Shown piece after piece: positions 3,963 through 61,003 of a stretch of DNA of 64,000 bases. Within the stretch, counting starts at the first letter, position 1. The number at the start of each line of letters is the position of its first letter. A program made the translations under genes and the position numbers. Below the pieces are notes generated by a model. The model saw only the letters and a program-made list of their open reading frames with translations, was not told the origin of the DNA and ran no database searches. The stretch is from assembly GCA_951406725.2 (NCBI GenBank), contig OX597824.1, positions 29,636,001 to 29,700,000 of the forward strand. The letters run 5' to 3'. Origin of the DNA: Octopus vulgaris. Its lineage: Eukaryota.

Positions 3963-4940
3963 ATAATTATAATTAGGGTTCAGCTAACTGCTTCACCACA
4001 TACCGAAATTAGAAATAGGAGTTAAATATTCCTTTTTTTCTGCTACTATAAGAATCTCCATGACGGTAAACATACTTTTTTATGAAGGCAAAGAGAAAAA
4101 CAATGAATGAACACGACCAGGATTAATTATATACGCGTTTCGAGATTAAAGTGATTTACGTTTTACTTAATTCTCTCTTCAGTATAATATTTCATAAAAA
4201 AAGTATGTTTACCGTCATGGAGATTCTTATAGTAGTAGAAAAGTTATTTCTAACTCATTTTTCTAATTTCGGTATGTGGTGAAGCAGTTAGCGGAACCCT
4301 AATTATAATTATGTAGATAATTTTACCTATAAAGGTTATTTTAACGTACCGATCTCCTTGGTAAAAATGTTAATTAATTGATTAATTGATTAATTAATTT
4401 GATTAATAAATTTTACCCTTCTATTATTAATTTAAAATTATAATTTACTCCATGATAGAATACTGCAGTTTTCTGCGGTATTGCTCGTAGCATACACGTG
4501 GGTATAGAGTTGGAATAGTGTATTCACATTCGGCTCTGTAAATTTTGAAAGTGTTGGTTGGATATCTGTTACATGATGACGCTCGATTGTGTACATATTC
4601 AGTCATAGCACTTTCAAATTTTAGAGAAGTAAGTACAACTTAAATTATTTTAATCTCGAAACGCGTATATAATTAACCTTGGTCGTGTTCATTCATTGTT
4701 TTTCTCTTTGCCTTCGCAAAAAAGTATATTTACCGTCATGGAGATTCTTATAGTAGTAGAAAAGGAATTTCTAACTCCCTTTTCTAATTTCGGTATGTGG
4801 TGAAGCAGTTAGATGAATTCTAATTATAATTATGTGGATAATTTTACCTATAAAGGGTCTTTTAACGTACCGATCTACTTGTTAAACTTGTTAATTAATT
4901 AATTAATTTGATTAATAAATTTTACCTTTCTACTAGTAAT
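3963..4940. mobile_element. Penelope-like non-autonomous element with inverted and direct pseudo-LTR copies
   Basis: 3963-4086 is the reverse complement of 4191-4312; 4191-4430 recurs as a direct repeat at about 4715-4940; hammerhead in the spacer; ends in (TA)n; a tail fragment recurs at about 51150-51293. Confidence 0.7.
4126..4188 (-). ncRNA. Minimal type I hammerhead ribozyme
   Basis: Minus strand AUUAUA-CUGAAGA-GAGAAUUAAG...UUAAUCUC-GAAAC-GC-GUA/UAUAAU; 6-bp stem I, core intact, GUA cleavage triplet. Confidence 0.75.
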
Positions 4941-5059
4941 ATATATATATATATATATATATATATATATATATATAAAACATATTTCTGCGTTTATTTT
5001 CCTAAGTCCACATTCTTATAGGGATAACAATACATACACCAACAAAAGCATATGCATGT

Positions 5060-7177
5060 ATGTATATATACATACAATCAGAAAGGATCTGTCTTTCATC
5101 GACTGGTCTTTTACTCTCAATTCCACCCAAATTGAGACCGCGTGGCAGCACTTTGAGAACATTGTCACTTATACATTCTCTAAACACGCTCCTACGAAAT
5201 CTACTAACACAAACAGAAACCGGCTCCCTAAAAAGAAAAAAACACTCATCAGGCGCATCAAAAGACTCAACAAAAAAAATCAACCAACTAAAATATTCCC
5301 ACACACAACATCCACATTCAACAACAATGAAAAGGCTAGAGTTGGAAAAACTTCATCTGCAGACCGACATGAAAACCTACATTGAAAATCAAAGAACTGT
5401 GGAGAAACAGTGGTTAATCAAAAACATCAAAGAGAACCCAAAAGTGTTCTATTCATATGCAAATAAGCATAGAACCAATGTCTCACCCATTGGGCCATTG
5501 ATTGATGATAACGGCATTCCCCAACACGATGCTAAAGAAATGGCAGAAATACTGCAGAAACAATACTGCTCTGTCTTTCGTGTCCTCACTGATATTGACG
5601 CAAGAGAAGCGAACGAAGTTGATTCCCAACATAAAATCTCAGACATAACTTTCACTGCCTCTGACATCATAGCAGCAATAAATGTGGTCAAATACTATTC
5701 TGCTGTAGGCCCTGATAGATTCCCCGCTAGTCTCCTGAAGGAATGTAGACACCAACTTGCAGTCCCTCTGACCAACCTCTGGAGAAATTCGTTAGACTCG
5801 GGTTATATACCGAAACAACTTCTATCCCAGTCTGTCATCCCGGTTTTCAAACAGGGAAACAGATCCCTCGCAGTCAACTATCGCCCAATCTCACTCACCT
5901 CCCACATCATTAAAGTGTTTGAAAGAGTGTTAAGATCAAGGATAGCTGACTTCCTGGAGACCCACAAACTCCTAAATGCAAATCAGCATGGCTTTCGCTG
6001 TGGCAGAGACTGTCTAACACAGCTCTTACACCACATTGAAGATGTACTCAAAGCCTTGGGAACAGGTTCGAACTCTGATGTCATATATCTTGACTTCAGT
6101 AAAGCGTTCGACAGGGTTGAGCATAATATCCTACTCTCAAAATTGGCAAATGTTGGAATCCGTGGAAAACTTCTACACTGAATTAAGTATTTCCTGGTGA
6201 ATAGAATACAACATGTTGTAGTTGACAGAGTCCACTCAAGCCCAGCAAAAGTCACCAGCGGTGTCCCCCAGGGGACTGTTTTGGGCCCGCTACTCTTTAT
6301 AATTTACATAAACGACCTTTCTAGTGTCGTACATTACTGCAAAGTGAAAATATTTGCTGATGACACTAAGCTCCAGCAAATCATCAATGAAGAAGCAGAC
6401 CGAACTCAACTTCAGTCTGATCTATATGCTGTGAGTCAATGGGCAGACAGAAACAAAATGCAACTGAACGAGGGAAAATTTGAGCTGATGCATTTTGGAA
6501 GAAATTCCTCACTAAAACAGCCATACTCTCTTCCTTCAGGGGAACCGCTCACAGCTTCTAACAATATCAGAGACCTGGGTGTAATTGTTGATGACGATCT
6601 CAGTTGGAGTGCACACATCAACAAGCAGGTCGATATAGCTCGTAGGATGAGTTCCTGGATCTTAAGAACTTTCCGGTCCAGAGAACAAGGTGTCATCATA
6701 CCACTTTTCTCCTCCTTTGTACGGCCACACCTCGGATACTGCTGCCCACTGTGGTCTCCCCATACAAGACAAAACATCTCGAGGATTGAATCACCCCAGA
6801 GAGCACTCACTAAACGAATTGAAGGCATGGCTGCTCTCGATTATTGGGATCGCCTTAAAACCTTGAAACTTTACTCCCTCCAGCGTCGCCGAGAGCGGTA
6901 CATCATTTGTACGATGTGGAAAATATACCGCCAACTTTGCCCAAACTACCTGAACATTAGCTTCAAGGTTCATCCAAGACTGGGACCACGGGCCATACGT
7001 CCCCTGCCCAATTCAAGAGCACAGCATACATGTACACTGCAACATAATTTCTTTTCCTCAACAGGCCCTGCCCTATTTAACATTGTCCCGAAATAGATCA
7101 AAGAGGAAAGGGATCCCATCAACTTTAAACGGAGTCTGGACAGATTCCTTCAAGGAATACCTGATAAGCCACCCATA
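5060..7177 (+). pseudogene. LINE reverse transcriptase pseudogene
   Basis: ORFs 5060-6181 and 6197-7096 share a frame, separated by TGA at 6179 (probable former Trp codon); further stop at 7094; frameshift near the A-run at about 5275 relative to ORF 5056-5385. Confidence 0.88.
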
Positions 7178-58410: not shown

Positions 58411-60175
58411 TGAAAATAAACACACACATTTTCATTCTATCGTAGTATTTTTTATTTATCAAAAAATAACAAAGTCCATCTTTTCCTCGCGTTTCGGATA
58501 TAAAATAAAAACCTGGCGCTCTCCATTGCATCGCCAACGCATTGAGTTGATTATGGAGGCTTCTAAACAAAATGTCTCTACATTTTCCCTTTCAACTATT
58601 TCCAGGAGGTTGTGAGTGTAGCGTCCTCTGGCATCTCTTCCATAGGAACTTGTCAGAAGCAACCGCCACTTTACTTTCCGACTGGATTTCCAAGTAAGCC
58701 AAATGAGACTTAAGATATTGCCCCCCCCCACCACCACCACCACCACCATCGCGTTTTGGTCAACTCCTGGATCTCCTGCCGGTTGGTTTTGCTTTCAGAA
58801 TTAACATGTTAAAATTACATTTGCGTAGAAATTTTCAAAACATTAGCTCTCATGTGACAAAATGGAAAATCTATAAAGTGAAGTGAAATCGAACCAGTGG
58901 ATGTGTTTTTATTAGTAAAATGACCCACCCGATGTACAACATCTGTTTCATCAAAGGCTTTCGAATTAAACAAACACAAAAGCGAAATTCACACATGTGA
59001 ACAAACAGATACATATGTGCACACACACAAACACGTGCATACACACACGCACATACACACACACACACACACACACAGATATGCGCGTGTGTGTGTGTGT
59101 GTGTGCTTATATACATATGTATATATGTAATATAGATTGATTCTTAATGTGTGCACATATTTAGATCCAAATATGTGCATATATGCATACACACACATAC
59201 ATACAAACATACAGACATTCATAGATATGTACGTACGTATATACGTATATATATATGTGTGTGTGTGTGTGTGTGTATACATACGTACATATATATACAT
59301 ATACATATATATGTTTGTATATATATGTGTGTGTACAGACATACACAGACGCATACAGAGACACTAACACACGCACGCATAAACACACACACACATACAC
59401 ACATACACACACACATGTACATGCATATATAAGCATAGACATAGTACTTGGTTTCCTTTCAAGTTTAAGAATTTGCTACTAAATTAACACGCTATCCAAT
59501 ATGAAAGCCAAGCAGCCCAATCGTCAACAGCTCCGCTATTTCGCCAGTCCTAGAAAACATGTATTTCCGGTTTGGCGATTCTTCTCACAGGTGTCTTTTC
59601 AAAAATGTTGAAAATCTTGCCCGACAGCTTTTTGCTAACGTTGTGTGTACGTTTGTGTGTGTGTATGTGTGTGTGTGTGTGTGTGTGTGTGTGTGTGTGT
59701 GTGTGTGTGTGTGTGTACAGCTGTGTGTGTTTATTTTCATTCTATCTATCTAATTGATATTCATGGTGTTCTCCTAGCAAGTGCTGTCGGTAACACATGT
59801 ATGTTTACGCGTGTGTGTGTATTATATTATGCGTGCGCATATGTACACACGCACACATTCACACATATATACATACAAAATCTCACTCTCTCTCTCTCTC
59901 ACACACACACATACACTTGCCATATATATATATATATATATATGCACACACGTGATTCAGTTTATATGTACCGGTATGTGCAATTTTGTACTAATGTTTG
60001 CATATATATATATATACACACATATGAACATACATAAATATGTGTGTGTGTATGTGTGTACATATATACACATATACATACGTAAATATGTATATGTGTG
60101 TATATATATATATATATATTTATATGTATGTATATATAAATATTTGTACTATATAAATGTATACATATATATATA

Positions 60176-61003
60176 CTTTATTTTAAGCAGCAGAAAATTC
60201 AACAAAATCTGTTACTCTGAGTTTCTCGTTGCCGTTCATCAGACAGTTTTTGCTAGAATGGAACATATATATTAATTCAATCTATACTCTTACAAACGCT
60301 ACACCTTTAAAAAGAAATGGACTTGTTTGATTGGCCCTTTAGAAAAAACGGTCAATCTTCGAGCGATAAACAAAAAGGTCAAAAATATATGTATATATAT
60401 ATAAAAACTTATAAAAATTATAAAATCCGAGGAAAATACCGAGGAAAAAACCTGTTGCCGTTAATGAAGACAGTACAAATTAATGCATAGAAATTAAACC
60501 TGTTATAAATACTGCAATACATATTTATATTAAAATCCACATATATATATCAACATACACAATATATGTGGATTTTAATATAAATATGTATTGCAGTATT
60601 TATAACAGGTTTAATTTCTATGCATTAATTTGTACTGTCTTCATTAACGGCAACAGGTTTTTTCCTCGGTATTTTCCTCGGATTTTATAATTTTTATAAG
60701 TTTTTATATATATATACATATATTTTTGACCTTTTGTTTATCGCTCGAAGATTGACCGTTTTTCTAAAGGGCCAATCAAACAAGTCCATTTCTTTTTAAA
60801 GGTGTAGCGTTTGTAAGAGTATAGATTGAATTAATATATATGTTCCATTCTAGCAAAAACTGTCTGATGAACGGCAACGAGAAACTCAGAGTAACAGATT
60901 TTGTTGAATTTTCTGCTGCTTAAAATAAAGCATATTACTCTACCACTGGTATTTGAGTACTCTTTTTTCCACCTTGTTTCACATTTATGTGTTTACTCCG
61001 GTA
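60176..61003. mobile_element. Large fold-back Penelope-like element, about 370-bp arms, 15-nt loop
   Basis: 60176-60546 and 60562-60930 are reverse complements; the only differences I saw are two homopolymer indels; hammerhead in each arm; TA-rich flanks. Confidence 0.85.
60860..60897 (+). ncRNA. Minimal type I hammerhead ribozyme (mirror copy on minus at 60209-60246)
   Basis: CUGU-CUGAUGA-A-CG-GCAA-CG-A-GAAAC-UCAGA-GUA/ACAG; core intact, GNRA-capped but weak stem II. Confidence 0.72.

Follow-up and report, generated by a model that had tools for sequence, protein, structure and literature searches.

Penelope-like elements (PLEs) are known to target (TA)n, to leave inverted truncated copies with one-sided tails and to carry hammerhead ribozymes, and a Hydra family has been described in Octopus (PMC8557442); Hydra-1_Obim is among the hammerhead carriers. 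Members of the Hydra clade insert at (TA)n, have a type I hammerhead with a self-complementary stem III 100-200 nt from the 3' end and, at the 5' end, a truncated copy in inverted orientation, and encode an ORF with RWK, DKT and CxCX5C motifs and no CCHH (Craig et al.). The passages on minimal PLE hammerheads in Cervera and de la Pena (2014; PMC4209133) describe a palindromic stem III, an extra base before stem II, a U3/A8 core variant and many unrelated families per genome, and read pairs of opposite-strand hammerheads 100-700 bp apart in Schistosoma as truncated PLEs. For Poseidon PAc of Anolis, the PLE protein cuts AT-rich DNA and extends both strands, and reverse transcription starts inside uncleaved RNA at two internal sites, one on either side of the tail (Frangieh et al., 2024; PMC11167929). 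Non-LTR retrozymes and non-autonomous Chlamys, e.g. MRC1 (PMC7229834; bioRxiv 10.64898/2026.07.22.740005), are ORF-less units with a type I hammerhead, a head-to-tail junction and a proposed dependence on PLEs, whose mobiliser in animals has so far been argued from co-occurrence and homology.

Here we compare with these systems a 64,000-nucleotide stretch of Octopus vulgaris contig OX597824.1 (hereafter the window), for which six short hammerhead-bearing elements, A to F, had been proposed (Table 1). All six are probably hammerhead-bearing terminal repeats of several PLE families, likely inserted by PLE protein at TA runs, with A likely representing a short protein-free family. Clipped ends are an ordinary residue of PLEs, and the elements are likely of this kind. 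Because most of this anatomy is already published, what is gained is mainly a set of unannotated PLE ends from octopus, and this is mostly known biology with modest mechanistic leads.

Table 1. Hammerhead-bearing elements and associated features, in window coordinates.
Feature	Position	Strand	Remarks
Element A, inverted copy	3963..4193	-	starts 5 nt before stem I, finishes at short 3' end
Hammerhead A	4126..4188	-	stem III a 6-nt palindrome; cut predicted after 4132
Element A, direct copy, truncated and tailed	4197..4429	+	tail about 4314-4429
Element A, whole ORF-less unit	4430..4939	+	body 4430-4623, core-deleted hammerhead, tail, then (TA)n
Weak case, degenerate hammerhead	11057..11320	+	U3/A8 core at 11109 (+); right boundary approximate
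Element B	11460..11957	both	arms 11460-11595 and 11667-about 11803
Element B, motifs	+11682..11762 and -11580..11500		intact in both arms
Element B, right arm			~155 nt longer, to (TA)n; presumed tail
Element C	12061..12552	both	left copy on - strand; right arm 12431-12552
Element C, motif	12299..12224	-	left copy only; right arm 85% alike
Element D	24745..25067	both	arms 24806-24933 and 24940-25067
Element D, motif	24937..24888	-	G3/C8-swapped core, in both arms
Element D, left arm			~60 nt longer, to (TA)n; presumed tail
Element E	27222..27800	-	single copy, provisional 5' boundary; motif 27340..27250
Element E, flank			(TA)n 34 nt past predicted cut
Element E, tandem duplication	27455-27659		102-nt
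Decayed Naiad PLE	28060..29750	-	RT half 29748-28737, then 3' UTR
SINE-like repeat within Naiad 3' UTR	about 28190-28580
Old inverted repeat (proposed weak case 29767)	29761..30111	both	90%, 107/119
Weak case, degenerate hammerhead	47215..47340	-	at 47332, one core mismatch; 3' side enters (TA)n
Seventh fold-back, newly found	50411..50582		arms of 63 nt, one side extended by 39 nt; flanked on both sides by (TA)n; no hammerhead
Tail-only copy of family A	51152..51293	+	flanked by two (TA)n runs
Element F	60178..61003	both	375-nt arms; presumed right-arm tail ~72 nt
Element F, motifs	-60246..60209 and +60860..60897		one per arm

Hammerhead motifs in six unrelated elements

A pattern scan (a CUGANGA core or its G3/C8-swapped form, stem II and GAAA, together with a self-complementary stem III, UH and a stem I of at least 4 bp) returned 8 type I hammerhead motifs across the six elements, compared with a mean of 0.075 and a maximum of 1 in 40 block-wise dinucleotide shuffles, and a stricter scan returned 4, compared with a mean of 0.05 in 100 shuffles. 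The original prediction of a hammerhead in each element thus holds for all six, but not for every copy, as the right copy of C is without the motif and the right copy of A has lost the core. Stem III, described as often palindromic, is self-complementary in 6/6 elements and forms a hairpin by itself in 0/6. Minimum-energy folds of single motifs mostly lack the full hammerhead, and the folding energies predicted for dimers, barely better than those of two monomers, carry no weight as evidence here. No cross-matches among the six were returned by masked blastn, in agreement with their proposed lack of sequence relationship. Together with the palindromic stem III, the extra base before stem II, the U3/A8 core variant and the occurrence of many unrelated families recur here as in minimal PLE hammerheads.

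Among the weaker cases that had been proposed, those at 11057 and 47215 are recovered in a relaxed scan only (4 matches, 2 of which are element D; shuffle mean 0.4, maximum 2), while that at 29767 has no motif in any scan. The Rfam hammerhead family was absent at element B and the left arm of F and, for the whole window, among the 150 of 613 matches listed. Viral contigs scanned with the hammerhead patterns of F and D gave no match. Rfam matches of microsatellites and hairpins to miRNA models were rejected as composition effects, and a general repeat search of the window was dominated by microsatellites.

Fold-back geometry, tails and (TA)n context

Five of the six elements are 5'-to-5' inverted repeats, as had been claimed, and E alone is not inverted. 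Their arms agree at 91-93% in A and at 143/146, 108/127, 125/128 and 373/374 aligned bases in B, C, D and F, respectively; B, D and F, with arms 98-100% alike, look young. In 4/5 inverted elements (A, B, D and F) one arm is short and the other 60-155 nt longer, a one-sided extension that had been overlooked and is the known PLE tail, for which 30-40 bp are usually quoted. The tail of A is established by recurrence in three places, whereas the presumed tails of B and D have a boundary set by the TA run alone, without support from other copies; C shows no clear tail asymmetry. Arms start within about 15 nt of stem I in A, B and D, and 300 nt and 130 nt upstream of it in F and C, from which most arms of the control family described below differ. 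No ORF remnant was found upstream of the window hammerheads, including the 300 nt in F, and no window element was found joined to a PLE RT/GIY-YIG ORF.

Of 11 outer ends in the six elements, nine are at most 10 nt from (TA)5 or more, a criterion that holds for 4.4% of background positions and 2/32 ends of other repeats; the B right, D left, E left and F right ends were positioned by the TA run itself, and among alignment-defined ends only, 5/7 are at TA, compared with the same 4.4%. The proposed opening of the outward ends into (TA)n is thus borne out except for the A left and C right ends, and the suggested density of one element per 10 kb stands for this window only. Target duplications are masked by (TA)n; a 14-nt word is common to the flanks of F, and no duplication was found at A or C.

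The same anatomy in a Hydra-clade control family

The control set comprises 120 metagenome loci retrieved with a pattern built on the Hydra-2_aMil-type stems of F. They belong to an animal other than octopus, were chosen for their intact hammerheads and have 3' ends that resemble, by eye, the Hydra-2_Amil consensus. All inverted pairs are 5'-to-5' (18/18), and 14/15 scorable pairs combine a short arm with a tailed one (for independent use, P about 1e-4), or 12/13 distinct pairs once two duplicate loci are dropped. A word of 10-20 nt is common to both flanks in 8/10 pairs tested, while mismatched flank pairs reach a word of 9 in 2%. The arms start 0-19 nt before stem I in 71/85 distinct cases and 20-49 nt before it in 0. 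A stretch like the end of a Hydra-type ORF, or its adjoining sequence, is joined by 7/138 arms, and the ORF is absent in 43/45 arms with at least 400 nt of upstream DNA. Pfam did not recognise the ORF end at locus L022, whose assignment is a by-eye likeness to Hydra-2_Amil, and L079 matches only the final part of the query; L043 and L049 were dropped as ORF-linked loci after failing a strand or distance test.

Because an autonomous Hydra-clade PLE shows the same anatomy, fold-back geometry does not imply non-autonomy; the non-autonomy proposed for all elements is supported for A only, through the closed unit described below. That all six could be retrozyme-like families without autonomy, dependent on PLE proteins acting in trans and with no Naiad link, would agree with the lack of upstream ORF remnants, the closure of A in other copies and the reported derivation of retrozymes from PLE terminal repeats, but with an autonomous family looking alike and no array of two intact tandem ribozymes in the window we regard it as unlikely. 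The control also bears on whether the fold-backs might be MITE/foldback DNA transposons or products of misassembly in which hammerhead-like motifs are incidental. Such an origin would suit the near-perfect arms of B, D and F, and none of the contigs aligned to A was shown to span a fold-back centre; it is nevertheless scarcely credible given motifs above chance, arms that are unequal in length and carry substitutions and indels relative to each other, and independent assemblies in which this anatomy recurs along with target duplications of 10-20 nt.

Element F resembles the control: its stems I and III are identical to those listed for Hydra-2_aMil and its cut-to-end distances, 35 and 110 nt, are like the control's. 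An nhmmer profile of the post-ribozyme sequence of 24 control arms did not match the F tail, and only a similar bulged hairpin is predicted in both, with weak z-scores of -0.5 to -1.3. The window elements have the (TA)n target, type I hammerhead, self-complementary stem III and inverted copy in common with the Hydra clade, but depart from it in the 25-45-nt loop II of A, B, C and E and in the swapped 3-8 pair of D, and F is without the ORF; by eye, none matches the listed Hydra-1_oBim hammerhead. Of what had been proposed, the PLE origin, the preference for TA and the dimer type of the hammerheads find support.

Family A as an ORF-less unit

Contigs of other copies of family A (records 4, 29 and 30) link the tail to the body, and in each of the two DNA-like runs the body end at 4623 is joined to the hammerhead at 4193, which is intact; one contig of the presumed-RNA run X12, which may be DNA, holds this body-to-hammerhead joint as well. 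The two presumed-RNA runs aligned to A consist of assembled contigs and bear on sequence, not on expression or cleavage. Family A is thus a closed, ORF-less unit of about 550 nt with a longest stop-free frame of 49 aa, outside a range of 150-450 bp and inside the 51-972 range of the 2026 preprint. A head-to-tail junction without an ORF is a retrozyme feature, and element A is likely part of a protein-free family of 0.55-kb units that parasitises PLEs. Unlike retrozymes, the family is dispersed, has an atypical ribozyme and combines its ~0.55-kb size with the inversion and the tail typical of PLEs; intact ribozymes were not found in an array, and at the A locus tandem units with two complete ribozymes are absent, the direct copy being without the core.

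Rolling-circle retrozymes, in which cleavage releases monomers that are circularised and reverse transcribed so that the ribozyme defines the unit, would explain the ubiquitous self-complementary stem III, the head-to-tail junction and the X12 contig, and coral and mussel are known to contain retrozyme RNAs in circular form. This origin is, however, quite improbable here: the predicted cut is followed by a further 34-285 nt before the elements end, so that cleavage does not define their ends, the copies are inverted singles rather than arrays, the motifs belong to the atypical PLE type, X12 may be DNA, and a lizard PLE with ribozyme mutations inserts normally, with no RNA ends at the cut (PMC11167929).

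The neighbouring Naiad relic

The RT relic at 28700-29750 had been put forward as the mobiliser. We find that its 5' half is missing, that it carries stops, frameshifts, deletions and a SINE insertion, and that it is truncated 3' of the CxC and DKA motifs; by eye, it tracks the Naiad_Ovul consensus closely through the RT into the 3' UTR. A word-index protein search missed the relic and an index-free search detected it, with 912 relatives that align to 29748-28737, an N-terminal GIY-YIG match in 7/12 long ones, an RT of the N-terminal-endonuclease type and an ORF ending after the RT. Judged by its sequence, the relic is a dead Naiad, Naiad_Ovul-like. Naiads are without canonical hammerheads and are reported as long inactive remnants in cephalopods, and no hammerhead motif was detected in 28060-29750, even in the relaxed scan. 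Since its clade is without canonical hammerheads, the relic is an unlikely partner, and with its decay and the near-identical arms of B, D and F the proposed role is not upheld. Naiads do have (TA)n targets in Octopus and inverted copies with tails, and the relic shares its strand with E, at a distance of 1.4 kb; mobilisation by its family is nonetheless very improbable, as the published 3' ends of Naiad_Ovul and Naiad_Obim are, by eye, unlike E, the six window motifs are absent from the Naiad supplement (where line breaks could mask a match) and B, D and F appear recent. We see no link between these Naiads and the window hammerhead elements.

An 86-aa frame upstream of E, endonuclease-like by eye, was rejected, with only a sub-threshold DUF2002 in Pfam and no match in a protein search or in Atlas. 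No RNA runs for 27225-30110 were among the matches listed.

A possible route to fold-backs with one tail

The sequence pattern consists of two opposed copies with central 5' ends, one short and one tailed. Following PAc, we propose that each DNA end of a staggered cut would prime one cDNA, one per start site; both cDNAs would be copied back through the hammerhead, often halting just 5' of it, and their joining would yield a one-tailed fold-back whose target duplication is concealed in (TA)n. The palindromic stem III may allow two ribozymes to pair and cleave as a dimer, with insertion ends not being set by cleavage. Likely mobilisers would be hammerhead-bearing, (TA)n-targeting PLEs, e.g. Hydra, rather than the adjoining Naiad. 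PAc shows no strand bias in vitro, whereas genomic fold-backs of the control family almost always combine the two sites; because the start sites do not differ between strands in vitro, the one-short-one-long rule is not predicted from that system.

It is possible, though we hold it only tentatively, that the protein-free hammerhead unit of family A, with its PLE insertion signature (fold-back, two 3' ends, TA target), constitutes direct structural evidence of trans mobilisation by PLE machinery, and that fold-backs reflect a coordinated reaction: each of the two DNA ends would use its own RT start site, and both cDNAs would stop at a fixed point, 5-8 nt before the ribozyme. Hammerhead-only insertions would then be a defined product and not random truncation. 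If true, PLE-specific insertion marks on a family that has no ORF would give more direct evidence on retrozyme mobilisation. Concrete predictions for an in vitro PLE system follow from the pairing of a short with a long arm, from target duplications of 10-20 nt and from the fixed 5' end, all of them counted in the control family and not in the window.

Cephalopods and a natural G3/C8 core are not mentioned in the cited passages of PMC4209133, and one paper on this core treats it as an engineered rescue; element D offers a natural example of it.

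Hammerheads and fold-back geometry

The six short repeats named in the original prediction (elements A to F) are real and related to Penelope-like retrotransposons (PLEs), and they represent largely known biology. A scan for type I hammerheads returned 8 motifs, every one within these elements, against a mean of 0.075 and a maximum of 1 in 40 dinucleotide shuffles of the window, which is rich in AT and microsatellites (∼14 kb were masked for repeat comparison). Stem III, noted in the prediction as often palindromic, is self-complementary in 6 of 6 elements; it is not foldable as a lone hairpin, and folding predicts pairing between two copies. 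In element D, core pair 3-8 is swapped to a natural compensatory G3/C8 in both arms, and an engineered G3/C8 double swap is described as partly active in a lizard PLE (PMC11167929). Of three weaker cases, those at 11109 and 47332 pass a relaxed scan only, in which shuffles reach 2 matches, and the one at 29767 has no motif in any scan, strict or relaxed; the U3/A8 core variant of the first is among those reported from Schistosoma PLEs (PMC4209133). Rfam has no hammerhead family at B or at the left arm of F, nor is one among the 150 of 613 window-wide matches listed.

Repeat alignment agrees with the expectation that five of the six are inverted repeats with central 5′ ends. Most are also bordered by (TA)n, as proposed: 9/11 outer ends have a (TA)5 run no more than 10 nt away (background 4.4%), as do 5/7 ends fixed by alignment rather than by the TA run, compared with 2/32 ends of other repeats in the window. 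Overlooked in the prediction was that in A, B, D and F one arm stops while the other extends further. The extension of element A belongs to the element, since the same stretch recurs at three places; it is a PLE tail, as those of B, D and F probably are. Such tails, often confined to one end, are described alongside inverted 5′-truncated copies (PMC8557442), and in a lizard PLE as the stretch bracketed by two internal reverse transcriptase (RT) start sites (PMC11167929). A further fold-back, at 50411, has the same anatomy without a hammerhead motif. Element ends fall 34–285 nt downstream of the predicted cut sites, so cleavage does not define them; insertion by ribozyme mutants of the lizard PLE is reported as normal (PMC11167929).

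Coordinates of elements and neighbouring features in the window
Feature	Position	Hammerhead motif	Extension (nt)	Remarks
Element A	3963-4939	one arm only	∼116	inverted repeat
Element B	11460-11957	both arms	∼155	inverted repeat
Element C	12061-12552	one arm only		inverted repeat
Element D	24745-25067	both arms	∼60	inverted repeat; G3/C8 at 24888-24978
Element E	27222-27800 (-)	present		single
Element F	60178-61003	both arms	∼72	inverted repeat
Additional fold-back	50411-50582	none	∼39	63-nt arms, between (TA)n runs
A extension, recurrences	4314-4429; end of 4430-4939; 51162-51293			last one alone
Depth peak	3963-4028			shared loose ends behind 4010
LINE-type RT fragment	5006-7093			Pfam RVT_1, directly after A's TA run
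Degenerate hammerhead	11109-11140	U3/A8		
Tandem duplication	27455-27659			102 nt, 96%, upstream of E hammerhead
RT relic	28060-29750 (-)			
Nested inverted arrangement	57068-58406			

An autonomous family with the same anatomy

Searching metagenome contigs with a pattern of the stems I and III that element F has in common with Hydra-2_aMil yielded a control family of at least 120 loci and at least 138 arms. By eye, the 3′ ends of the loci listed resemble the Hydra-2_Amil consensus, and the ORF end of locus L022 resembles the Hydra-2_Amil endonuclease end; 7/138 listed arms join sequence matching this ORF end, as do 2/45 of those with at least 400 nt upstream. All 18 inverted pairs among listed loci are joined 5′-to-5′. 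One short and one tailed arm were found in 14/15 listed pairs (P ∼1e-4 if arms drew ends independently), three further pairs being cut by contig ends; with two duplicate loci removed the count is 12/13, the exception being L019, whose flanks are identical on both sides. Each fold-back is likely one insertion, because flanks share a 10–20-nt word in 8/10 listed pairs with enough flank, against 2% of mismatched pairs at ≥9 nt. Among 85 distinct listed arms with at least 100 nt upstream, family sequence is lost 0–19 nt from stem I in 71 (peaks at 5 and 8) and at 20–49 nt in none, while 14 extend at least 90 nt; in this scoring, divergent subfamilies without a reference would count as short. An autonomous PLE thus gives mostly ORF-less, hammerhead-only, fold-back insertions, and fold-back anatomy alone is no proof of the non-autonomy that the prediction had read from it.

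Element F has the same stems I and III as Hydra-2_aMil. Against placing F in the Hydra clade, a profile of the control-family sequence downstream of the ribozyme has no match at F, where only a bulged hairpin at a like position is predicted, with weak z-scores.

Proposed mechanism

A lizard PLE is described as cutting AT-rich targets and extending both strands from two internal start sites on an uncleaved template (PMC11167929), and minimal PLE hammerheads as cleaving weakly and dimer-dependently (PMC4209133). We propose that each end of a staggered cut would prime one cDNA, one per RT start site; both would run back through the ribozyme, often stopping at the RNA 5′ end or where a strong stop lies slightly past stem I, and their joining would give the fold-back. 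Visible in the sequences are the window motifs, geometry, tails and TA ends, and the target duplications and fixed 5′ end of the control family. The in vitro work describes no strand bias in start sites (PMC11167929), and the one-each rule is therefore a prediction. Hammerhead cleavage, expression and RNA circles of the window elements are putative.

The RT relic

The relic at 28700–29750, proposed to mobilise the elements in trans, is by sequence a Naiad: by eye it is nearly letter-for-letter like the published Naiad_Ovul consensus (PMC8557442), which its 3′ UTR tracks to ∼28060. This likeness makes an Octopus species the very likely source of the window. A protein search gave 912 relatives; 7 of 12 long ones tested match an N-terminal GIY-YIG, and long relatives align to 29748–28737 only. 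Naiads are described as lacking canonical hammerheads and, in cephalopods, as remnants (PMC8557442), and the arms of elements B, D and F are 98–100% alike; the proposed partnership is unlikely. The Naiad consensus end does not resemble element E by eye, and searches upstream of the window hammerheads gave no PLE ORF. Two Naiad-like RT proteins, P0012 and P0123, have a ubiquitin C-terminal hydrolase domain at their end (Pfam UCH; E 4e-10 and 4e-31, respectively) and may be fusions or gene-calling artefacts.

Element A and neighbouring repeats

From left to right, element A consists of an inverted copy, a truncated direct copy that carries a tail, a 194-nt body, a broken hammerhead, another tail and (TA)n. 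Its family is multi-copy, with 1415 contigs in one DNA-like run and 1541 in another, where depth is no measure of copy number. Among the pieces listed, records 4, 29 and 30 bridge tail to body (8–20 differences), record 30 spanning the whole body, and body end 4623 joins the intact hammerhead at 4193 in both DNA-like runs and in one contig of a run taken as RNA, possibly DNA. Because contigs bridge both joints, element A likely closes as an ORF-less unit of ∼0.55 kb (longest frame 49 aa) rather than being part of a longer parent element, judged from 32 of ∼3200 pieces together with a subset of joints and loose ends.

An opposite-strand joint of 4581 to 4299/4820 recurs at high depth in three runs, and the tail-only copy has a 9-nt inversion (51152–51162) at the same spot; a fold-back junction itself may have undergone amplification. 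The depth peak and the shared loose ends behind 4010 suggest a larger, related family that has just the short 3′ end in common with A; by eye, the loose-end consensus resembles part of an element C arm.

In the parts of the open literature concerned with octopus or cephalopod hammerheads, mollusc retrozymes, non-autonomous Penelope hammerheads and Penelope twin priming, no description of these families was found, Repbase and subscription papers lying outside this scope; the comparison drew on portions of PMC8557442, which could still contain a matching family, PMC11167929, PMC4209133, PMC7229834 and bioRxiv 10.64898/2026.07.22.740005.

The LINE-type fragment has two long frames with a single stop between. 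The nested inverted arrangement belongs to a high-copy family that we take to be SINE-like, with 57068–57287 98% identical to 58171–57951 inside a larger inverted pair.
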